IMG/VR virus record: IMGVR_UViG_3300033062_002592
Span: 32,001 to 96,000 of that record
Length of the DNA stretch: 64,000 nt
Source: a virus
Taxonomy: Duplodnaviria; Caudoviricetes
Direction: 5' to 3' (one strand)
The position numbers and the translations under genes are program-made. Under the pieces are notes generated by a model. That model did not search any database and was not told the origin of the DNA. It was given only the letters and a program-made list of their open reading frames with translations. Of this stretch, positions 12,531 to 63,666 are shown piece by piece; the stretch's first letter is position 1, and every line of letters begins with the position of its first letter.

Positions 12531-14279
12531 ATGACAGAAGATTTTAAACTTATCGAAGAATATCTCGCAAATCACAATTGGAGAATAAGTGAAAACTCAA
12601 ATACAACTTACAGCTTCTCAGGATTAAAATCCTATTTAGATTCGCATATCTTGGCCGATTTTGCATTATCTAAATTGCCAGAAGAAATCCGTAAAGCCCA
12701 TAAAAATGGAGATTTCCACATTCACAATTTAGAATCTGGAAATCTTATCAGATATTGCAGCGGTAACTCGTTGCAAATGTTATTACTGAAGGGCTTGTGG
12801 ACTCCTTCTCTGATTTCTAAACCCGCAAAACATTTTAGCGCCGTTGTTGACCATGTGATGAATTATCTTTACATGATTCAAATGGAAACTGCGGGTGCTG
12901 TTGCATTTAATGATGTAGATACCTTGTTAGCACCGTTTATCAGACATGACAAACTTGATTTCAATCACGTAAAACAGGACATTCAAAGATTAATCTTTAA
13001 CTTGAATTTTACATTGCGCTCAGCCTCTCAAACGCCCTTCAGCAATGTTTCATTAAACTTCGGCGTTCCTAAATATCTTAAGAACAGCCCCGCCATAATA
13101 GGCGGCGAAGTTAAAGACAATCCATGTTACAGCGATTATGAAAAAGAGATTGAAATGTTTGATATAGCTTTCTCAGAGATTCTCATGGATCGCGATGGCA
13201 AAATGCGCCCCTTTACATTTCCCATTCCCACAATTAATCTTACTAAAGCCATAAATTGGGATTCTGAAGCCATTAGAATGATGCTCATAGAAGACATTAC
13301 ATTGGGATCATTTTATTTCATGAATTATATTGGCTCAGGCATTTCAGAAGAAACCGTTAGAGCCATGTGTTGCAGATTGAATATTGATACATCAGAATTG
13401 TCTTCTGCTGGTGGACTATGGAACATGGGTGATTCCACAGGCAGCCTCGGAGTTGTTACACTTAATCTCGCAAGAATTGGATATCTCTCAAAAACAGAGG
13501 ATGAAATTTATGAACGTCTTACAGCTTTGCTAAAGCTCGCTGTTGAAGAATTATTAATTAAAGAGCAGATGATACGCAAAGGTTATGAAGCGGGTCTTTC
13601 TCCCTTTTCAGAATACTATGATTTGAATCTAGACCATTACTTTAGAACAATTGGTATAGTAGGACTTAACGAGCTTTGCTTAAACTTTACAGGCAAAGGC
13701 TTGATAGATAATGCAGAGCTAGGCTACAAAATACTATCATTCTTGAGAGGTAAAATCAAAGAAATTCAGAAAGAAACTAAAAAGCTGTTTAATCTTGAAA
13801 TGACTCCAGCTGAAGGTAGTTCATACCGATTAGCCAAGAAAGACTTGGAGAAGTATGCTAACATTAAAACTTTGGGAACAAAGGAAGCACCATATTATAC
13901 ATCGTTGTTGATTCCACCATCTGAAGCCATGGACGTTTGGGAACGTTTGAAAATCGAAGAAAAGTTATTACCACTATTCTCAGGCGGAACAGTCTTCCGA
14001 GTTTTCGTTGGCGATGAAACAGATGATATTAACAGCGTAAAAAAATTGATTCAAACTATAGCTGCTTCGAAGATTCCATATTTTGACATTACAAGAACCT
14101 TTTCAGTCTGCGCAGGTGAAGGTAAGTTCTACAACGGAGAGGTTGAAATCTGCCCAAGCTGTGGTAAGCGAACTGAAGTATTTTCAAGAGTTGTGGGATA
14201 TTATCGACCAGTAAATAAATGGAATATTGGAAAGCAACAAGAATTTAAAGAAAGAAAATACGTTAAAATTGGCGGATGA
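12531..14279 (+). CDS. nrdD: Anaerobic (class III) ribonucleoside-triphosphate reductase
   Basis: ENSN, HIHNL, YC, PFTFPIPT, MCCRL finger loop, TPAEG, C-terminal Zn site and RVVGY glycyl-radical motif. Confidence 0.95.
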   Translation: MTEDFKLIEEYLANHNWRISENSNTTYSFSGLKSYLDSHILADFALSKLPEEIRKAHKNGDFHIHNLESGNLIRYCSGNSLQMLLLKGLWTPSLISKPAKHFSAVVDHVMNYLYMIQMETAGAVAFNDVDTLLAPFIRHDKLDFNHVKQDIQRLIFNLNFTLRSASQTPFSNVSLNFGVPKYLKNSPAIIGGEVKDNPCYSDYEKEIEMFDIAFSEILMDRDGKMRPFTFPIPTINLTKAINWDSEAIRMMLIEDITLGSFYFMNYIGSGISEETVRAMCCRLNIDTSELSSAGGLWNMGDSTGSLGVVTLNLARIGYLSKTEDEIYERLTALLKLAVEELLIKEQMIRKGYEAGLSPFSEYYDLNLDHYFRTIGIVGLNELCLNFTGKGLIDNAELGYKILSFLRGKIKEIQKETKKLFNLEMTPAEGSSYRLAKKDLEKYANIKTLGTKEAPYYTSLLIPPSEAMDVWERLKIEEKLLPLFSGGTVFRVFVGDETDDINSVKKLIQTIAASKIPYFDITRTFSVCAGEGKFYNGEVEICPSCGKRTEVFSRVVGYYRPVNKWNIGKQQEFKERKYVKIGG

Positions 14280-14280
14280 A

Positions 14281-14436
14281 ATGAACAAAGTTTTTTGCGA
14301 TTATTGCCATAATGAGATTCCTCCAGATAAAGTTTATGAAGTAATCTTGAGATATCCCGGAGAAATTTGTGGAACTTGGGACGCCTGTGAAAATTGCTTC
14401 AAAGTTATTGAATCAAAATTGGGATTGAAAAAATGA
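14281..14436 (+). CDS. Zn-finger microprotein
   Basis: CDYC...DACENC. Confidence 0.6.
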   Translation: MNKVFCDYCHNEIPPDKVYEVILRYPGEICGTWDACENCFKVIESKLGLKK

Positions 14437-14585
14437 AATGTCATTGCGGATCCGAGCTTAAAGCCGAAGATAGTAAAAGTGGAGAAATCTGGGTCTGCCC
14501 CAAATGTGAATGCAAATTCAGGTTTACTTTAGTAAAATGGCAGAACAAATGCTATGCAAAGTTTCACAAAGACCAAAATACTTAA
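14433..14585 (+). CDS. 50-aa Zn-ribbon microprotein (not in ORF track)
   Basis: MKCHCGSELK...WVCPKCECKF...; ATGA overlap with the previous stop. Confidence 0.6.
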   Translation: MKCHCGSELKAEDSKSGEIWVCPKCECKFRFTLVKWQNKCYAKFHKDQNT

Positions 14586-14590
14586 ATACT
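14572..14590 (+). promoter_or_regulatory. Putative archaeal BRE/TATA promoter for the glycan operon
   Basis: ACCAAAATACTTAAATA: purine-rich BRE-like element plus TTAAATA box about 30-40 nt upstream of the 14622 start. Confidence 0.45.
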
Positions 14591-14621
14591 TGTATTGCTT
14601 ATATGTATATGAGATGTTTTT

Positions 14622-14963
14622 TTGCTGATAGACAATACAAGAGTCCAAGTTATGCAATTTGAAAACCTTCGAGAATTTATTAAGCCAAGTTCAAGTTGCT
14701 ATGTTTTAAAGTATGAACTCGGCGATGAAGATGCTGTCTATTACACCATCGCTGATGGTTCAAACTTTGCATTATTGGCATTCTGTCTTGATAAAAATTT
14801 TAAAACGGAAAACGTCAAGATTGAAGGAGATAAGATTATAGAAGCTACAGGCCCCTCAGGAACCACAGTTGTTCTTGCAAATGTTATTAATGATACATTC
14901 TTAGAAGCCGTTCTTGATGAATATTTTGGGAAAAAACCTAGGAAAAAGAAAAATGAAAATTAA
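14622..14963 (+). CDS. Hypothetical protein
   Basis: 113-aa ORF, TTG start after GAGATG. Confidence 0.65.
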   Translation: MLIDNTRVQVMQFENLREFIKPSSSCYVLKYELGDEDAVYYTIADGSNFALLAFCLDKNFKTENVKIEGDKIIEATGPSGTTVVLANVINDTFLEAVLDEYFGKKPRKKKNEN

Positions 14964-15870
14964 AACTGTAGCACTTTGCGGCTCAAATATTGGTGATTAT
15001 CTTTTCGACATTGTGGCAGAGGGTATGGTTTATTTATTGGGCCGAAAAAACGTTTATATAAAAGATTTGTATATTGCGCCCAATGATCCAAACCAAGATT
15101 TACATGGTGGTTATTCATATACAAACGAATTTTTGCGAGAGCCAAATGAAATTTCTTCATTGTTTGACTGTGATGTTTTAATTAATAATTACGCTAGAGC
15201 GCCAGGAGATATAGGTGAACATAAAGAGGCACCGGAATTCAAAAAATCTGGAAAAACCGTTGTTATAATTGATGGCGGCGATTTTCCGAATATGTGGTAC
15301 CATATTCCCCATGATTTATATTTTAAAAAGGAATATTATATCAATCAAACTTATCCCAAAGATGTATTTAATTTGCCCTTTGCTGCAAAAATGTTTAAAT
15401 ATGATTTTCCCAACATAGAAAAAACAGGAGATATAAGTCTTTTTGGTAGTCTTGGTGCAAACCCTTTGCGTGGCCAACTTATGGAAGCATTTAAAAAGAC
15501 AAGTTTTAAATGTAATTTTGGTGGGCATTCTCTTCAATATATGAAATATCTTGAAGAAGTGCGCAGGCATTGGCTTTGTCTTTCAACTCCAAGCGCTAGT
15601 TGGGATACTTACAGATATTGGGAATTACCCTATTTTGCTTGCCCCATGTTATGTAGTCGCCCAATGATAAAAATAGATAATGATTTTGTTGATAAAGAAA
15701 GTTGTTTAAAATTTGACACTGCTGAAGAAGCGGTTAAAATTGCAGAAGAGTATCTTCCTCAAAAAGAAGTTTTGTTAAAAATTGGAGAAAAGGCAAGAGA
15801 AGTTTCCCTGAAATATAATTTGTCTATACATCGAGCGCAAAAAGTTTTGGATGAAGTTGAAAAATTATGA
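14953..15870 (+). CDS. Glycosyltransferase (GT-B, CgeB/Glyco_trans_1_2-like)
   Basis: IIDGGD, YFKKEY, R...Y..YL, WDTYRYWE...C and KIGEKARE C-terminal pattern. Confidence 0.75.
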   Translation: MKIKTVALCGSNIGDYLFDIVAEGMVYLLGRKNVYIKDLYIAPNDPNQDLHGGYSYTNEFLREPNEISSLFDCDVLINNYARAPGDIGEHKEAPEFKKSGKTVVIIDGGDFPNMWYHIPHDLYFKKEYYINQTYPKDVFNLPFAAKMFKYDFPNIEKTGDISLFGSLGANPLRGQLMEAFKKTSFKCNFGGHSLQYMKYLEEVRRHWLCLSTPSASWDTYRYWELPYFACPMLCSRPMIKIDNDFVDKESCLKFDTAEEAVKIAEEYLPQKEVLLKIGEKAREVSLKYNLSIHRAQKVLDEVEKL

Positions 15871-16433
15871 AGTGGCAAGATTTAACAAAAGAAGATTATG
15901 AAACAAGTTGGGGCGTTGCCAACTATTTAGATAAAATTGTTTTAGACGTTGGCGCAGATGTTGGAAGCACTGCATTATTTTTCATAGAAAGAGGAGCAAA
16001 AAACATTATTTGTGTGGATACAGATACTTCAGGATTAACAAAAAATGCTCAAGAGATTCCTCAAATAAGCAAAATTGTAAATGTTAATATCCAAGATAAA
16101 TATACAATGGAGCGAGTTCTTTTAGAAACGGCGGATATTGTAAAGATGGATATAGAAGGAGCTGAAATGTGGCTATTAGAAGTTGATCCACGAATATTGC
16201 AGCAACATAAAGAATATATTATTGAGATTCATGGTAGTTGTATTCATCATACTCCTGTTTGTGATCCACAATGTCTTTACACTTATATTAAAGATATGTT
16301 TTTGAAAAATAACTTTGAAATTTTGGATGATTTCATATTTTATTGGAATCCTGTTTATTGTTCAGAATATAAAGGAGAACGCAATAGTCCCGAAAATAAA
16401 GGATTACATATTGTTTACTGCAGGAGAAAATAA
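15867..16433 (+). CDS. FkbM-like SAM methyltransferase
   Basis: VLDVGADVG...VKMDIEGAE...IEIH. Confidence 0.8.
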   Translation: MKWQDLTKEDYETSWGVANYLDKIVLDVGADVGSTALFFIERGAKNIICVDTDTSGLTKNAQEIPQISKIVNVNIQDKYTMERVLLETADIVKMDIEGAEMWLLEVDPRILQQHKEYIIEIHGSCIHHTPVCDPQCLYTYIKDMFLKNNFEILDDFIFYWNPVYCSEYKGERNSPENKGLHIVYCRRK

Positions 16434-17366
16434 ATGAAGATTTTTATAACCGGAGGAACAGGGTTTATTGGAGAAAACCTTGTAAATAAACTGTTAGAAC
16501 GAAACCATGAAATATATGTATTATGTAGAAATGTTACAGACCGCAAAATTACACTTCCCCAAGGCACCAATATTGTTTATGGAGACCTTATTGATGGGCA
16601 TTTTCTAAAGAAATCCTTAAAGGAAATAAATCCCGATGTGGTAGTTCATCTTGCTTCAGTCTCTTCGGTCGCTTATGGGCATCAACATGCTCAAGAAAAT
16701 TTTGAAATTACATTTCTTGGAACAGTAAATATTCAAAAAGCCTGTGAAGGATTATCAAACTTGCAAAAATTTATTTTTGCGGGAACTTCTGAAGAATATG
16801 GCAATCAAACACAATTTCCAATAAAAGAAAATGCTCCTCTTTTTCCCAATCAACCATATGCCATAGCCAAAGTTGCTTCAGATTATTATCTTGATTATTG
16901 TAAAATAGCAAATGGTTTTCCATCAGTTATTCTACGCCCGTTCAATACATATGGTAGAACAAAGAATTTTACATTTGTAACTGAAAGCATTATATATCAA
17001 ATGCTTACAAAAGATAAGGTTATCTTGGGAAATCCCGATGCAACTAGAGATTTGCTCTATGTGGATGACCATGTTAATGGATATATCAAAGCAATTGAAA
17101 CAACAAAAGACCTTGAAAAATGCAGAGCCATAAACTTATGCACTGGAATCGGAACATCTATAAAAACTCTTGCTGAAAAAATTCAAAAAATTGCCGATTT
17201 TAAAGGCGAAATAATTTGGAATATAAAAATTCGCCCAACTGAAATTAATAAGCTCGTTGGAGATTGGGGTCCAGCCTTTGATTATTTAGAATGGCGCCCA
17301 CAAACCTCATTAGATGAGGGTTTAAGTTTAGCAACTTATAAGATAAAATCTTTGGTGGTGAAATAG
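16434..17366 (+). CDS. NDP-sugar 4,6-dehydratase/epimerase (extended SDR)
   Basis: GGTGFIG, HLAS, TSEEYG, PYAIAK, RPFNTYG, RDLLYVDD. Confidence 0.92.
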   Translation: MKIFITGGTGFIGENLVNKLLERNHEIYVLCRNVTDRKITLPQGTNIVYGDLIDGHFLKKSLKEINPDVVVHLASVSSVAYGHQHAQENFEITFLGTVNIQKACEGLSNLQKFIFAGTSEEYGNQTQFPIKENAPLFPNQPYAIAKVASDYYLDYCKIANGFPSVILRPFNTYGRTKNFTFVTESIIYQMLTKDKVILGNPDATRDLLYVDDHVNGYIKAIETTKDLEKCRAINLCTGIGTSIKTLAEKIQKIADFKGEIIWNIKIRPTEINKLVGDWGPAFDYLEWRPQTSLDEGLSLATYKIKSLVVK

Positions 17367-43440: not shown

Positions 43441-44370
43441 TTAGCTTACGTTTATGCCAGCAATTGCACATATAGTATTACCTACTAGAACAACTGGAGC
43501 ATAACGTGCAGTTATGTACACACCAACCGAGTCCCTCTCTTCAAGTGCTTTGATTCCTGTAGTTATTGGTCTACGTTCCACAAACATTCCCATTGGACTG
43601 TATTGACCCAATATGTTTGTAGTTCTTCCTCTTGAAAGCACATAAGCGCTACCTGTGGGACAGTTTATTGATGCATAAGCATCAAGACCCAATATATCTC
43701 CGAACTTACCCGGCACAGCCATCAAGCCTTCCTGCAGAATGGGTTCACCATAATGCATCAGCGATGTGAAGTGTGGAAGCTTCTCGATATGAGTCTTAGC
43801 CAATGGGTGCACCAATAGAGTATCTGGCATATAGTTGTACTGTTCTATCTGAGCCTTAGCGTTTATAATGTCGTATGTGCCTATGCCAGGTCCGCCAGAA
43901 CCCGATATGACGAATTCTGTGCCGTCAAAAGCCAAGCTTTTGCCTGATGCAGTGACTGAACTTCCTGTGCCTGCGCCGATTGCAGAAATGCAATCTTTAT
44001 CAATCTTGTTAGCAAATCTCAAAGCGCTACGCACAAGCTGGTCTTGCTGAATAGGTATCAATGAATCTTCAATCATTTCTTTCGTGATTATGAATCCGTG
44101 CGCAATCTTGTAAGGAACTACGTTCACGGACGTATAAGTTGTAACATCAAGCGGAATCTCGACACCTTCAGCAACTTTCTGTACAACAGCAGCCGCACTA
44201 CCCGACTGTTTCGGGAATGTAATGCTGTTAGATGCTGTTAGAGAATATTGCTGGAAAAACTGTCGTGCAACCATGTTTGGCATAGCAATTTGAACCACTT
44301 GCTGGTGTAATGCGGGATAAAGTAAACCCGCAGTAGTAACTGGTGATAGTATTTCTCTCTGTAAAGACAT
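43441..44370 (-). CDS. Major capsid protein (HK97 fold)
   Basis: VAEGVEIP, K.AHGFIITKEMIEDS, FANKID, PDTLLVHP, G.ILGL; downstream of protease and cement genes. Confidence 0.92.
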   Translation of the reverse strand: MSLQREILSPVTTAGLLYPALHQQVVQIAMPNMVARQFFQQYSLTASNSITFPKQSGSAAAVVQKVAEGVEIPLDVTTYTSVNVVPYKIAHGFIITKEMIEDSLIPIQQDQLVRSALRFANKIDKDCISAIGAGTGSSVTASGKSLAFDGTEFVISGSGGPGIGTYDIINAKAQIEQYNYMPDTLLVHPLAKTHIEKLPHFTSLMHYGEPILQEGLMAVPGKFGDILGLDAYASINCPTGSAYVLSRGRTTNILGQYSPMGMFVERRPITTGIKALEERDSVGVYITARYAPVVLVGNTICAIAGINVS

Positions 44371-46126: not shown

Positions 46127-46381
46127 TCATCCCTTATTATGTGTTTTAAACCAAGATTTTGCTTTTTCCTTAGTCCATCCTTTAGATTTAGAAAAAAGGT
46201 AACTTTGTGTTCTCATGCCCGCTTTGCAGCGTCCTCCAACGTATTTTCCCTTAGGACATCCAACAACAGCTTTGATTCCTTTTCCTTCATCAATAGTAAT
46301 CGTTCTGAAAGAATTGGGATCAAAACTAGATTTATTTCCATGTCCTGACCTTATTGTTTCAGGATTTTCATCCCAAGGCAT
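46127..46381 (-). CDS. Small basic head-module protein
   Basis: MPW.E....IRSGH...F...SFRTI...GIKAVVG...QSYLF.K..WT.EKAK.W; immediately upstream of the protease. Confidence 0.7.
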   Translation of the reverse strand: MPWDENPETIRSGHGNKSSFDPNSFRTITIDEGKGIKAVVGCPKGKYVGGRCKAGMRTQSYLFSKSKGWTKEKAKSWFKTHNKG

Positions 46382-46395
46382 AATTAGTCACACTT

Positions 46396-46656
46396 CTACC
46401 ACGCTTGTGAAACATATGATCCGCTAACGCTGTAAATTGAATGTTTGCTTCCACTTGTTATGCATAGATAAAGTATAGGTGCTCCAGTTGTTCCCATAGT
46501 AGTGGGTGAACCAGTCACTAATACTATGTCTCCAGGACTCATAGAACTGGATGGAATTGAACCAAATTGTTTAGTAAAGCAAAATATTTGTGCGTCAACC
46601 TCAGGATATTCATTCATTGGGTAAACCCTGTTTGGAACTGATGCCAAAATCTTCAT
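46396..46656 (-). CDS. Small putative virion protein
   Basis: 86 aa, AGGAGG RBS, 3 [S/T]GS motifs. Confidence 0.6.
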   Translation of the reverse strand: MKILASVPNRVYPMNEYPEVDAQIFCFTKQFGSIPSSSMSPGDIVLVTGSPTTMGTTGAPILYLCITSGSKHSIYSVSGSYVSQAW

Positions 46657-46685: not shown

Positions 46686-47423
46686 TTATTCTATCTGTCC
46701 CAACAGCTTTTCTAAGCTGGTAAAGGGACTTGATGAAACTCCTCCTGCGAGAAGTTTCAAATTATTTACTTTTCCCTTAAAAAGCATGAATTTATACGCA
46801 TCGGCTTTCTCAATCAGTGAAATGTCCCCATTTTCTTCAATCCATTCACGCATCTGTGATTCTGATAAAACAAGAGTTTCTGGAGTCTTAACCAAGACGT
46901 TTATAGTGCCATCTGCGCCTGTAACAATCGATATCTTTTCCCAATCATCCTTCAGGAATGTAGCAACATCCCAATCTGAGAATTCATCGCTGATAGGATG
47001 CGCATGTATGGATCCAATGATTTTCTCATCTTTACGATATTCCTTAGTTTTCTTAAAAGTCACGGACATGTCTTCGCCAATTTCCATCATGTCCATGCGG
47101 ATGCCCTCTGGAGTCTTGACAAGAAGTGCGCCGAACTCTTTCTTTGTTTCGTGTGTGAATCTATAAATTTTCTGTATCTGATCCTCAAGAACTTCATTTA
47201 ATAACAATTTTGATGAAAGATACCATCTTTTACCGCAATCATCGCAAGCAAAACCAAATACAACCTCTGATTTCCGAACAATTTGAGCTTGAAGTCTGCT
47301 TCTCAAGTTTCCACCGCAGCGTGGGCATTGATAATGTTTTGCATGGGGTCGAAGTCTTCCACCTGCAAGAGCGGGATACAAAAGTGCTGGAGTCGTTACT
47401 GGTGATAGAATTTCTGTACTCAT
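46686..47423 (-). CDS. JAB/MPN (JAMM) metalloprotease with Zn ribbon and an N-terminal copy of the MCP N-terminus
   Basis: KEFGALL...IHAHP.....SDWD JAMM motif; CPRC...CDDC; EILSPVTT..LLYPAL shared with the MCP. Confidence 0.8.
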   Translation of the reverse strand: MSTEILSPVTTPALLYPALAGGRLRPHAKHYQCPRCGGNLRSRLQAQIVRKSEVVFGFACDDCGKRWYLSSKLLLNEVLEDQIQKIYRFTHETKKEFGALLVKTPEGIRMDMMEIGEDMSVTFKKTKEYRKDEKIIGSIHAHPISDEFSDWDVATFLKDDWEKISIVTGADGTINVLVKTPETLVLSESQMREWIEENGDISLIEKADAYKFMLFKGKVNNLKLLAGGVSSSPFTSLEKLLGQIE

Positions 47424-47575
47424 TTTTTTTCCTTCTTTTGAATCTCTATTTTTTGAAACTCAGGATCATGATATGCTCCGCAGGCTCCACCCGAGACATG
47501 GTCTGTCCACTGGTCTAATGCTTTCTGTAGTTCTTGCTGAACTTTCTCTCCCATTTCCTTAGGAACTTTTGACAT
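47420..47575 (-). CDS. Small hypothetical protein
   Basis: Likely ATG at 47575 after AGGAGA; its stop overlaps the JAB ATG. Confidence 0.55.
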   Translation of the reverse strand: MSKVPKEMGEKVQQELQKALDQWTDHVSGGACGAYHDPEFQKIEIQKKEKK

Positions 47576-47587
47576 AAAATCTCTCCT

Positions 47588-47620
47588 AAATTGATAAGCA
47601 AAAAAATTGCTTATCAATTT
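47588..47620. repeat. Perfect 14-bp inverted repeat (terminator or operator)
   Basis: AAATTGATAAGCAA-AAAAA-TTGCTTATCAATTT, directly after the stop at 47621. Confidence 0.7.
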
Positions 47621-48535
47621 TTAACTTGAACCAGTTGAAGAACCTGTCACACTTTTATACCAATATAGGTAATCGCATAGACATGAGCCGCTTGCATTTT
47701 TTCCATTGAATCCAAAAGCAATACCTCTTATAGTAAAGTAAAATGGATTAGGAATAATAGTTGATCCACTAAATAGATTATTATCTAATACATAATCAAA
47801 AGAATTCCAACCCTCGGTGTGTATGTCTGTTTTAGCAATTTTAAATCTTGCATATGTACTATTACTGCCGGTATCAAAACAATATTCAAAGCCTGTACCT
47901 AAAGGACCGCTTCCAGTTGAAACAAGTATTTTAAGTTCAAGCCATTTAAATCCAGAAATTCCATTGATGCTAAAAGTTGGAGTAGGTGGATACATATAAG
48001 CATAAACTGATATATCATATTTTGTGCCAGCTGCATAATCAAAATACCAATTTAATCTTATATCATTTGATTCTCCCTTCCCAAAAGCTGTGTAAGGCAT
48101 ATGATAAGGGCTAGAACAACCCGAAAGAGGATCATAACCTTGAAACACTAAACTTTGACCTTCACCCGAAAGCGTACTTCCAGACATATAAATGCCTTTA
48201 GTAGATACAGAACCACTAGCAATCCATGAACCAGTCCAATAACAATCAGTAGCCGAACCAGATGTCCGCCTCATATTCCAAGCCCAAATGGTACCTTGAT
48301 AAAAAAGTTCTGGATCTTTATGAGGCAAATGCCAATCTGTAGCTAAAAGATATTGTGCTCCCGCCGTGCGTAAATCAAAAATATCGATTGCTCCACCATC
48401 TGCATCCAGGTCTGCATAAACATTGTAAGTTGCATCTCCTGCCGATGAACCAAATGCATCAGCAACTATCTTTAAATCTATCATATTTACTTTTCCATTG
48501 AAATCAGCATCACCAATTAAATAATGATTTCCCAT
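47621..48535 (-). CDS. Dockerin-domain virion protein
   Basis: True start is likely ATG 48535. GDADFNGKVNMIDL...AFGS...YN.YADLDADGGAIDIFDL gives two Ca-binding loops, followed by a beta domain with 10 [S/T]GS. Confidence 0.75.
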   Translation of the reverse strand: MGNHYLIGDADFNGKVNMIDLKIVADAFGSSAGDATYNVYADLDADGGAIDIFDLRTAGAQYLLATDWHLPHKDPELFYQGTIWAWNMRRTSGSATDCYWTGSWIASGSVSTKGIYMSGSTLSGEGQSLVFQGYDPLSGCSSPYHMPYTAFGKGESNDIRLNWYFDYAAGTKYDISVYAYMYPPTPTFSINGISGFKWLELKILVSTGSGPLGTGFEYCFDTGSNSTYARFKIAKTDIHTEGWNSFDYVLDNNLFSGSTIIPNPFYFTIRGIAFGFNGKNASGSCLCDYLYWYKSVTGSSTGSS

Positions 48536-48536
48536 T

Positions 48537-49280
48537 TTATGCCACCTTCTTATTTGTGTATTGTAATCTAATATTGTGAATATACAAGCTTTCACTTGCA
48601 GCTCCGCTTGCATAGATACTTATAGGTGAATCCATTGTAACAACATTACTTTCGTTAAAATTGGTCCAACTTCCCGAAAAAAGTCCTCCTGCGGTACCAT
48701 TCCATGCACATCTAGCCACCAATAAAGCATCGATTGTTTGAACTATTACCGATTTAGAACTTGCAGCGCTTCCAGATCCATATACTAAAAGTCTAAAACT
48801 TCCAACATCGAAATTAATAAAATCAATTTTGGTTGTGTGTTCTGGTAAAAATGCTCCATAAGTCGTAGCAAGAGTTAAAGTTTGTTGTGTAGGAGAAGAA
48901 AAAAGATTAATTTCTCCCCAAACTCCTTTAATACCATTAACGGTGGTTATACTACCAGAGTAATCAATAGCAAAAATATCTGCAGCAGGTGAATCTGTGT
49001 AATTTAAAATACTGAAAGCGTTGGTAGATCCATATCTTCGCCAGATGATATCTTTGTTTCCTCCACCTAAATTGCTTGCGCTTCTTGCAAAATACACAGA
49101 GTTTGAATTGGGTGAAGAAAGCATTGGATTTGTAGAACCATAAGCCAATAATGGATTAATTAGATAAATACCACTTCCGCTACTAGCCTTTAAAGTAGTT
49201 GTACCTAGAGTTTCCACATTTACATCTCTGAATTTGTCCAATGGATGCGTTGCCATTTTTGGAATTTCATACATTGTCAT
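48537..49280 (-). CDS. Putative virion fibre/decoration protein
   Basis: Beta-rich, Ser/Gly-rich; in the head module. Confidence 0.6.
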   Translation of the reverse strand: MTMYEIPKMATHPLDKFRDVNVETLGTTTLKASSGSGIYLINPLLAYGSTNPMLSSPNSNSVYFARSASNLGGGNKDIIWRRYGSTNAFSILNYTDSPAADIFAIDYSGSITTVNGIKGVWGEINLFSSPTQQTLTLATTYGAFLPEHTTKIDFINFDVGSFRLLVYGSGSAASSKSVIVQTIDALLVARCAWNGTAGGLFSGSWTNFNESNVVTMDSPISIYASGAASESLYIHNIRLQYTNKKVA

Positions 49281-62226: not shown

Positions 62227-63666
62227 CTACCATGTTACCACGCTCATTTCAATCTCCTGTTTTTGTTTATCACTTGCAAGTTTATCTAAAGTTGGGTCAG
62301 AAACCTGAACTATCATAGGATCAAATTCAAACGTAAATTCTTTATAAACTGCAAGCGCAAGCGCCCAGACCATATCATCCATCCCAGCCTCTTCTTTCCC
62401 ACTGTAGCGCGTGTGCAAACCCATTTTAGTTGAAGTTCTCTGAATGCCATGCAGTTGCAGCTCAAGTTTCTCAGCTATAGAGCCCATATCCTTATGGGGC
62501 AAGCCCACTTTAGTTCTCTGCATGAGCATTCTTAATCTAATGATGATATTCTCCTTTACTGTGGAAGTGAGGTCAAACCCCTGAATAACATAGCTTCCAC
62601 AGTATTTTTCATTGCTTAAGATATCCTGCATGGTTTGACCTCCTGGTCCACTGGCGTCTATTTTCACAGCAATTGGATTAAATTCAAGATAAAGCATTCT
62701 GATAATATCAGCCTGCTCATCATAGTTTACTCCCGCCATTTCTTCAATATATAATGTTTTAAAAGTTTCAGGAGCCGTTTCTTCAACTACATAAACTATT
62801 GTTTCGGACGTAGTTTTACCAAAATCAATTCCAAAATAAATCGGATTCTTCGTTTTATATCCGCTTGATATAAATTCTTTGATTTTTTGATTATTCCATA
62901 TCAATTCATAAGGAAAGAATGATAATGATTCATCAATGAATTCGGCGCAGTATTCTTGTTTAAAATCAATATCCGTCATTCCTTCTCTGAGGAACTTTTC
63001 CTGATTAGCTAGACGCGGACATTGCCAATAAATAATTTCATGATAACTCCATGTTGTGTCGAATTTTTGGCCCAACCCTCTGTAAACAACCTGTAGAGGT
63101 TCCGTAATTTCGTAATATCGTCCACGCTTCCCCTTTGGAGTGCTGTTTAACGTAATGTGGCCGCCAATTATCTGGAAGTCTCGCACAACAATCCACAATT
63201 CTCTATCATTGGCAACATGCGCGTACTCATCAACATAAACATCCGTTTCTGGACCTCTCATTCCGAAGCCTCGAATGTTTCCAGGCTCGCTCGATGGCAA
63301 TGACATAATACGTGCGCCATTCGGTAGCGTAGCGGCCTGACGGTTGTGTTCTTTTAAATGCGGCTGTAAAGTTAATGGAAACGTGGCAAGCATATCATAC
63401 CATTTTCCAAGAAGTTCTTCGGCAATGCGCTGTCCCGTAGATACCAATATAATTTGTCGACCGGGATTTGTAAACGATTTATAGATTGCTTCGCCGGCAA
63501 TGGTTGTGCTGATTCCAGTTTTCTTTGATTTGTTGATTGCTCTGTTTCTTGAAGTATCCCGAATGAGATGCTTCTGGTAAGGATCCATAATCCATGGAAT
63601 CATTCCATCGGGAGATTCAAGTTTAATGAAGGATTCTACAAAATTGACGGGATCCAATAAAGTCAA
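62227..63666 (-). CDS. terL: Terminase large subunit
   Basis: KSKKTGIST Walker A, VYVDE Walker B, STPKG, FKQEY, GIDFG and DDMVWALALA nuclease motifs. Confidence 0.95.
   Translation of the reverse strand: MTLLDPVNFVESFIKLESPDGMIPWIMDPYQKHLIRDTSRNRAINKSKKTGISTTIAGEAIYKSFTNPGRQIILVSTGQRIAEELLGKWYDMLATFPLTLQPHLKEHNRQAATLPNGARIMSLPSSEPGNIRGFGMRGPETDVYVDEYAHVANDRELWIVVRDFQIIGGHITLNSTPKGKRGRYYEITEPLQVVYRGLGQKFDTTWSYHEIIYWQCPRLANQEKFLREGMTDIDFKQEYCAEFIDESLSFFPYELIWNNQKIKEFISSGYKTKNPIYFGIDFGKTTSETIVYVVEETAPETFKTLYIEEMAGVNYDEQADIIRMLYLEFNPIAVKIDASGPGGQTMQDILSNEKYCGSYVIQGFDLTSTVKENIIIRLRMLMQRTKVGLPHKDMGSIAEKLELQLHGIQRTSTKMGLHTRYSGKEEAGMDDMVWALALAVYKEFTFEFDPMIVQVSDPTLDKLASDKQKQEIEMSVVTW

Follow-up and report, generated by a model that had tools for sequence, protein, structure and literature searches.

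The window, the whole stretch of DNA analysed here, comprises 64,000 nucleotides (bases 32001-96000 of the linear, 106,319-bp virus record IMGVR_UViG_3300033062_002592; estimated completeness 78%). It carries the head module of a tailed virus, in which two genes concern us: one encodes a predicted JAMM/MPN+ protein (the enzyme) and the other the HK97-fold major capsid protein, and the two products share a short N-terminal peptide (Table 1). All genes of the module lie on the minus strand, with small genes between the portal gene and a gene for a dockerin-like protein, and with the tail genes following the capsid gene. The enzyme open reading frame (ORF) starts at the first start codon of its frame, and this ATG overlaps the stop codon of an upstream ORF of 65 codons. 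The capsid protein was identified by Pfam PF05065 (Phage_capsid; E 1.1e-09, 38.6 bits against a cut-off of 24.2, residues 17-300), by PF25209 (30.5 bits against a cut-off of 27, a match to Phage_capsid_4) and by PHROG 1650, major head protein (E 1.2e-16).

Residues 4-19 of the enzyme and residues 6-21 of the capsid protein are identical at 14 of 16 positions (BLASTP, E 1e-05 for this single comparison), as an earlier note on this DNA had reported. That note had also counted synonymous codon differences at seven of the 14 shared residues, and had taken the peptide to be conserved and not the product of a fresh DNA duplication. Both points stand. Compared codon by codon, enzyme and capsid gene use different codons at 7/14 identical residues; 34 of the 48 nucleotides are identical, and the proportions of synonymous and non-synonymous differences (pS and pN) are 0.64 and 0.15. 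Among enzyme homologues the peptide codons give a pS of 0.76, with synonymous sites near saturation, against a pN of 0.24, indicating that selection maintains the amino-acid sequence of the peptide. When the N-terminal 32-mer of the capsid protein was compared with 567 six-frame ORFs of the window, the enzyme was the sole match (E 2.4e-9; runner-up 0.6), and no third copy turned up in six-frame identity scans, which covered the window and the entire 106-kb record, or in a regular-expression search of the record. A profile built from enzyme N-termini only, and run with filters off against the six-frame ORFs of the window and 15 loci, matched enzymes and capsid proteins, the latter at E 1e-8 to 1e-2, and everything else stayed above 0.1. 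Reciprocal short BLAST searches at seven distinct virus loci led each capsid 32-mer to the enzyme of its own locus and to nothing else (E 2e-9 to 2e-3; runner-up at least 0.2). Across nine loci, the core motif occurs within the first 30 residues of 15 out of 694 ORFs, and 14 of these 15 are enzyme or capsid genes.

The peptide is also retained over considerable divergence, as the earlier interpretation had presumed of homologues. Full-length enzyme homologues keep it down to ~43% identity, and so do the more distant P0056 and P0059 (the latter at ~32% identity), both of which lack the zinc (Zn) ribbon. Overall, the peptide is conserved to ~32% identity in the enzyme family and 39% in the capsid family, and in enzymes it survives a varying downstream architecture (the Zn ribbon may be present or missing, and some members have an N-terminal fusion or an inserted domain). 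Y16 and P17 of the enzyme peptide are nearly invariant across the family. Residues 1-20 are predicted to be disordered in the AlphaFold2 (AF2) model, with a predicted local distance difference test score (pLDDT) below 50, which fits the expectation for a linear motif.

Table 1 Features of the head module and of the ubiquitin-like module of the same virus record. Positions are those of the window unless stated otherwise.
Feature	Position	Strand	Remarks
Large terminase	62227-63666	-	Head module; four large fibre/spike-like genes between terminase and portal
Portal protein, 665 aa	50929-52926	-	PHROG portal E 1.4e-25; Pfam Phage_portal, Portal_Mu; opens the head module that holds the enzyme gene
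Dockerin-like protein	47621-48613	-	
65-aa ORF	47420-47617	-	Translationally coupled to the enzyme gene (ATGA overlap)
JAMM/MPN+ enzyme (predicted), 245 aa	46686-47423	-	ORF; Zn ribbon and capsid-like N-terminal peptide
Enzyme N-terminal peptide, residues 1-19	47367-47423	-	Core EILSPVTT, two variable residues, LLYPAL
Four-Cys Zn ribbon, residues 33-63	47235-47327	-	C33, C36, C60, C63 conserved; weak Pfam Zn-ribbon matches (TFIIS type, E 0.004)
JAMM/MPN+ domain, residues ~72-226	46746-47210	-	Fold match; only part matched by distant relatives
General-base candidate E96	47136-47138	-	Invariant in 38 sequences
Metal-site motif H140-x-H142-x6-S149-x2-D152	46968-47006	-	Invariant in 38 sequences
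C-terminal SLExLL tail, residues 236-245	46686-46715	-	Conserved in the family
86-aa Ser/Gly/Thr-rich protein	46396-46656	-	Directly downstream of the enzyme gene
84-aa protein	46127-46381	-	N-terminus MPW-x-ENPE-x-IRSGHG
Protease-scaffold fusion (putative), 402 aa	44915-46123	-	
Cement/decoration-like protein, 148 aa	44452-44898	-	Pfam Phage_cement_2 E 4.5e-4, under the curated cut-off; between protease-scaffold and capsid gene
Major capsid protein, HK97-fold, 309 aa	43441-44370	-	
Capsid residues 1-21	44308-44370	-	N-arm tip; original of the shared peptide
Ubiquitin-like module	Record 13143-16696 (L101 1143-4696)	+	Outside the window; four genes

In the capsid protein the peptide forms the tip of the N-arm, because the Pfam domain starts at residue 17, the sole solved relative by sequence (HK97 gp5-like capsid protein 8qpq) aligns from residue 24, and the AF2 model places short helices, at low confidence, at residues 10-17 and 19-28. 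Conservation was judged on 51 capsid proteins, down to 39% identity, from 91 homologues gathered; the peptide is the best-conserved stretch, with P10, Y18 and P19 invariant, and most of residues 1-38 are nearly so. A sister clade of capsid proteins (33-38% identity) has an N-arm that is recognisably related and shares the YPAL core. Not one of the other ORFs lying up to 10 kb from the capsid gene has a copy of this arm, and in searches for a variant of it on another protein the best match was no better than E 0.016 and none was N-terminal. In three complete sister-clade genomes a JAMM-family gene is located far from the head module, and its product has several Zn ribbons and no capsid-like N-terminus. 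Since the sister clade possesses the N-arm without a copy on an enzyme, the capsid protein has the motif by ancestry, and its presence in the enzyme is secondary.

The capsid genes of relatives are often interrupted near the region that encodes the N-arm, and the insertions carry homing-endonuclease-type domains (DUF559/Vsr-like, MTES_1575, LAGLIDADG). Such insertions were seen at loci L002 (4461-6344) and L011 (10737-11843) and in P0154, P0160, P0163, P0172 and P0177-P0185; they look like introns or inteins aimed at the most conserved part of the gene. At L002, the two halves of the capsid peptide are split by an 11-residue insert.

The enzyme family is small: it comprises 38 proteins from a word-indexed search, and 58 cluster representatives were recovered among 1.8 billion. 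Sequence profiles left the enzyme below their thresholds: the Pfam Prok-JAB model PF14464 scored 14.1 bits, short of its gathering score of 25, and precomputed tables assign this domain to few homologues. The profile of the enzyme family gave weak Zn-finger matches and no JAMM protein among PDB sequences, so that a comparison of folds was needed. With the AF2 model (pLDDT 78.7) as query, all 50 top entries returned by VIA-align were JAMM/MPN structures, the best being PfJAMM1 (5ld9; Z 8.7, root-mean-square deviation 3.0, 113 residues aligned, over residues 75-239 of the enzyme), followed by AMSH/Sst2, AfJAMM, Rpn11, a bacterial deubiquitinase for ubiquitin-like proteins and Cap3. Foldseek listed JAB1/MPN entries at probabilities of 0.9-1.0, yet at E values of only ~2e-3, and in the ESM Atlas the best scores (0.76-0.80) were under the meaningful level. 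E96, H140, H142, S149 and D152 are invariant in the 38 sequences, and the spacing from HxH to Ser is six residues, not seven, across the whole family. The earlier note had read a Zn ribbon and an E...HxH-x6-S-x2-D motif from the single sequence and had staked its interpretation on an MPN fold; the 38 homologues confirm the former, and the AF2 model with VIA-align confirms the latter, together with a complete JAMM-type metal site. From predicted fold and motif, then, the enzyme is a very divergent JAMM/MPN+ protein, and its domain looks catalytically competent. Inteins with endonuclease domains are inserted exactly inside the HxH motif of P0040 and P0045, as seen by reading the sequences, and Pfam alone places intein or Hint domains in P0064, P0071 and P0093. 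Intein insertions are typical of sites that a virus cannot lose.

The 65-aa ORF upstream is fused in frame to the enzyme N-terminus in P0031, P0032 and P0040, with no Met at the junction in P0032, and a segment similar to it is inserted between the halves of the Zn ribbon in P0042 and P0043. These fusions and insertions suggest that the 65-aa protein and the enzyme cooperate. At the other end of the enzyme, S/T-L-E-x-L-L is kept throughout the family, including members without the N-terminal peptide; longer relatives add G-x-K and a basic tail, and in the subclade of the window virus the enzyme stops just ahead of the G-x-K part. This C-terminal motif could be a second interaction or processing site.

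The genomic position of the enzyme gene is stable. In every relative with enough flanking DNA, including distant ones without the peptide, the gene lies between the portal gene and the maturation genes. At L097 it is directly upstream of the genes for the protease-scaffold, the cement protein and the capsid protein, and at L099 it directly follows a gene with a weak Peptidase_S78 match. In one lineage the link is physical: P0051 (L100 4939-8232, on a 13.9-kb contig) is a single gene of 1097 codons that joins a portal domain (Pfam E 1.2e-25), a low-complexity linker of ~550 residues and a JAMM domain with 44% identity to the enzyme (E 4e-37). In the portal structures known, the C-terminus is turned towards the inside of the capsid, and the JAMM domain of P0051 would therefore be tethered at or inside the head. 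Taken together, synteny and the portal fusion lend indirect, sequence-based support to an association of the enzyme with the head. Of the outcomes that the earlier note had named as refuting its interpretation (homologues without the peptide or without tracking of the capsid protein, no association with the head, a fold other than MPN), none came to light. P0052, found in the search of cluster representatives, resembles the stretch that enters the JAMM domain of P0051 and looks like a stand-alone protein, judged by eye and not by alignment.

A plausible partner for the shared peptide is encoded between the enzyme and capsid genes. At its N-terminus the 402-aa protein carries a protease-like domain with a four-Cys Zn-ribbon insert, followed by an acidic/basic coiled-coil scaffold and a conserved C-terminal amphipathic helix (W-F-K-E-I-K-A-F-A), and D64-H65, S112, C121, C124, C134 and C136 are invariant among 30 homologues. 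It has no Pfam match, and PHROG 18299, head maturation protease, matched only weakly (E 0.005). In the two features compared, protease-scaffold architecture and His/Ser motif pattern, it is like gpO of phage P2. From the P2 capsid protein gpN, gpO cuts off the first 31 residues, and the portal protein is thought to be processed by it too; in P2/P4 procapsids residues 1-14 of gpN are helical, and these helices cluster at capsomer junctions inside the shell (PMC7552001). In several phages the N-arm binds the scaffold in the prohead state, and later swings out to pair with the E-loop of a neighbouring subunit (PMC11922011).

Our favoured reading is that the N-terminus of the enzyme mimics the capsid N-arm and thereby loads the enzyme into the head through the scaffold, the protease and/or neighbouring capsid subunits, and that the peptide is probably clipped off later; we put its probability at roughly one half. 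As in other HK97-type viruses, the N-arm in the procapsid would point inward and contact the scaffold and/or adjacent capsid subunits. The enzyme peptide would take its place in these contacts, a few copies of the enzyme would be co-assembled inside the head and, by analogy, they would probably be clipped where the capsid protein is clipped. The binding partner, the packaging, the cleavage and the role of the enzyme are all things that we infer. We favour this reading because of the specificity of the peptide, the selection acting on it, its identity with the N-arm tip, the direction of copying, the location in the head module, the published precedent for N-arms and a weak tracking between enzyme and capsid peptides.

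This tracking is where the earlier expectation of co-variation with the cognate capsid protein was borne out only in part. At L013, the deepest lineage, the enzyme peptide is best matched by the capsid peptide of its own locus (score 70 against 44-60), whereas over all pairs the co-variation is weak: a sum at least as high as the observed one arises in 192 of 5040 permutations of lineages that are not independent, and L013 provides most of the signal. Several further observations weigh against loading by mimicry. (i) There is a single tagged protein per genome, in the window, the whole record and the related loci alike; known capsid-targeting tags usually mark several cargoes. The earlier note had proposed looking for mimics on cargo proteins of related viruses, and they are present on the enzyme homologues and on no other cargo in the loci searched. 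(ii) In the L004 lineage the first half of the enzyme peptide has decayed. (iii) P0032 has the peptide in an internal position, after a fused domain of 45 residues that is a copy of the upstream 65-aa ORF, and a free N-terminus is therefore not essential. (iv) The enzyme relatives in the head modules of L097 and L099 lack the peptide, which is thus not required for the role of the enzyme there; the L097 enzyme N-terminus has no significant match to its own capsid N-arm. (v) The protease assignment of the 402-aa protein is putative, being based on motif conservation and the weak PHROG match. The weak co-variation and points (i) to (iii) tell against any reading of the peptide as a tag. As for processing, no cut-site consensus could be derived, and the peptide motif does not recur inside the protease-scaffold.

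The strongest alternative, which we nonetheless consider improbable, is that the peptide is a substrate of the enzyme. The JAMM protein would then trim the capsid N-arm, as a second peptidase of head maturation, and its own N-terminus would be either a pro-peptide that it cleaves off itself or a pseudo-substrate by which it is held inactive until assembly. JAMM enzymes are peptidases, the metal site is intact and invariant, and the inteins in the HxH motif mark it as indispensable. The enzyme is linked to maturation genes even where the peptide is missing (the Peptidase_S78 gene at L099, the protease-scaffold at L097, where the capsid protein keeps the N-arm motif), and the portal-tethered copy P0051 would face the inward-pointing N-arms. 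In addition, a small Ala or Gly directly precedes the YPAL core in many capsid peptides, and Gly-Gly directly follows it in some enzymes. However, a dedicated, putative protease-scaffold fusion is already present. The JAMM enzymes characterised so far hold a folded ubiquitin-like domain and cleave behind its Gly-Gly tail, whereas the peptide is short and predicted to be disordered, and the Gly-Gly of the enzymes is not conserved. Furthermore, the AF2 model docks the enzyme N-terminus nowhere with confidence (pLDDT <50), and in the sister clade, whose N-arms are of this kind too, the JAMM gene is remote from the head module.

We give less credence to attachment of the enzyme to the assembled lattice, an idea we regard as distinctly doubtful, in which the mimic fills empty N-arm sites of the shell, for example around the portal vertex, and displays the enzyme on or at the shell. 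Mature N-arms form an intermolecular sheet together with a neighbouring subunit's E-loop and reach the exterior (PMC11922011). The capsid peptide is also more conserved than a disposable pro-peptide might need to be, with conservation unbroken to residue ~38. The P0051 fusion would place a JAMM domain at the portal vertex, but the portal C-terminus is generally known to face inward, which fits an internal location better. Lastly, it is very unlikely that the two peptides share no function and are a remnant of an old 5'-end duplication or recombination, or a feature of translation that two highly expressed late genes have in common: both genes do begin with Met-Ser behind purine-rich ribosome-binding sites, and the peptide is partly decayed at L004 and absent from distant relatives, but the amino acids have been retained although synonymous sites are close to saturated, the peptide survives deep divergence in both families (including L013, at ~32% enzyme identity), P0032 keeps it though internal, and no other ORF carries it.

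The candidate substrates of the enzyme are host ubiquitin-like conjugates, conjugates of a ubiquitin-like protein of the virus itself, or a head protein. The virus encodes a four-gene ubiquitin-like module outside the window. Its products are a 72-aa ThiS/beta-grasp ubiquitin-like candidate that ends in STTGA, a 413-aa protein of no known function, a second, canonical JAMM protein of 379 aa (HSH-x7-S-x2-D) and a 224-aa ThiF/E1-like enzyme (E 1.5e-28). In a close relative the ubiquitin-like gene, with the same tail, and the E1-like gene are retained, and both are absent from the three complete sister-clade genomes. Ubiquitin-like chemistry is therefore within the repertoire of the virus itself, and the head-module enzyme could act there. 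The STTGA tail has a likeness to the TT-Ala/Gly part of the peptide that is too short to test, and we made no use of it. Bacterial Bil systems reportedly conjugate ubiquitin-like proteins to phage tail proteins. A tentative extension, which we hold to be on the unlikely side, is that the enzyme, loaded by its capsid mimic (or tethered to the portal, in the relative), is a deubiquitinase that accompanies the DNA into the cell or works on the particle and strips off antiviral conjugates of the host or ubiquitin-like conjugates made by the virus. A role of the enzyme in counter-defence, raised in the earlier note, is speculation.

As to the virus itself, the clade is small and consists of uncultured, ~100-kb tailed viruses of archaeal type. 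The same record encodes a replication factor C (RFC) small subunit (L101 14529-15503), whose best solved relatives are from Pyrococcus and Archaeoglobus (E 7e-54 and 1e-49) against ~1e-14 for bacterial clamp loaders, and an ERCC4-type nuclease (L101 12571-12999), so that its replication and repair genes are of archaeal type. Relatives of the enzyme were not found in a provirus search of one genome per GTDB species, which thus pointed to no host, and in a tblastn search of GenBank phages (INPHARED) neither the capsid protein nor the enzyme was matched.

A few observations concern neighbouring genes of the head module. The N-terminus of the 86-aa protein, MASVPNRVYPL, is kept in relatives and has a faint likeness to the capsid peptide that the profile missed. 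At the distant locus L097, a head-module ORF of 71 codons (1770-1985) has AIAYPLL near its N-terminus, against AIAYPAL in the capsid N-arm; this 6/7 match (short BLAST, E 0.14) is a weak lead for other tagged proteins in other lineages. At L002 (2143-3165) the 84-aa protein is fused to the N-terminus of the protease and the scaffold is encoded by a separate gene, from which it follows that the maturation genes are modular in this virus group. Portal genes of relatives are also intein-bearing (L005 4050-7127).

Among known systems, the nearest parallel to the proposed loading signal is the capsid-targeting sequence (CTS) of phage T4, which is reportedly carried N-terminally by the internal proteins IPI-III and Alt, guides them to the inside of the procapsid and is then cleaved off by the prohead protease gp21. 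Like the enzyme peptide as we propose it, the CTS is a short N-terminal tag on a non-structural protein, and its cargo can be an enzyme. However, it is a dedicated sequence present on several cargoes and not a copy of the capsid protein, whereas the enzyme peptide marks one cargo and copies the tip of the capsid N-arm; moreover, the putative protease of the window virus resembles HK97 gp4 and P2 gpO, and the virus is of archaeal type. Encapsulin cargo peptides are short terminal sequences that dock enzymes inside an HK97-fold shell through a pocket of the shell protein, with no scaffold or protease involved, and unlike the enzyme peptide they do not imitate the N-terminus of the shell protein itself. 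For gpO, gpN and gpQ of P2, no enzyme cargo that copies the gpN N-terminus is described in the account cited above (PMC7552001), whereas the window virus encodes a candidate for such a cargo. In phage 80alpha a single host protease, Prp, is reported to process the N-termini of the capsid protein and of the scaffolding protein (PMC5744158). This is like the window virus as we propose it, in that one protease would process the N-termini of two head proteins; in 80alpha the protease is host-encoded and the second protein is the scaffold, whereas in the window virus the protease would be viral and the second protein the JAMM enzyme. Both processed N-termini of 80alpha are said to share a motif that imitates ribosomal protein L27.

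With PfJAMM1 (5ld9/5lda), AfJAMM (1oi0), Rpn11, AMSH, 8tyx and Cap3 (9ild), the enzyme shares its predicted fold (Z 7.5-8.7 over ~113-142 residues) and metal-site pattern. It differs from the solved JAMM proteins in having no significant sequence match to them and one residue less between HxH and Ser, and from known JAMM enzymes in its added Zn ribbon, capsid-like N-terminus and conserved C-terminal tail. Unlike the genes of known JAMM isopeptidases, its gene is located in a head module and not beside genes for E1, E2 or ubiquitin-like proteins. Papers on Bathyarchaeia viruses, Asgard viruses and HFTV1 mention neither JAMM genes within head modules nor N-terminal cleavage of capsid proteins. 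Literature searches likewise turned up no report of a JAMM protease as a capsid maturation enzyme, and we know of none acting in capsid maturation. Should the peptide prove to be a substrate of the enzyme after all, the window virus would offer a JAMM protease that works as a capsid maturation enzyme.

If instead the peptide is a loading signal, it would represent a third way of addressing cargo to an HK97-type shell, besides the dedicated leaders of T4 and the shell-pocket peptides of encapsulins. In this case the cargo would carry a copy of the assembly arm of the shell protein, which would provide a 20-residue candidate tag for loading proteins into the capsids of a virus group of which no member is in culture. 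A loading signal would also be a sign of ubiquitin-like chemistry in or on the particles of archaeal-type viruses. Bacterial defences have recently been reported to conjugate ubiquitin-like proteins to structural proteins of phages, and a particle-borne JAMM enzyme would bear on that finding. If the enzyme were in addition a virion-borne deubiquitinase, self-mimicry of the capsid protein would emerge as a principle of cargo loading, and the enzyme would be the first virion-borne JAMM protein of an archaeal-type virus.

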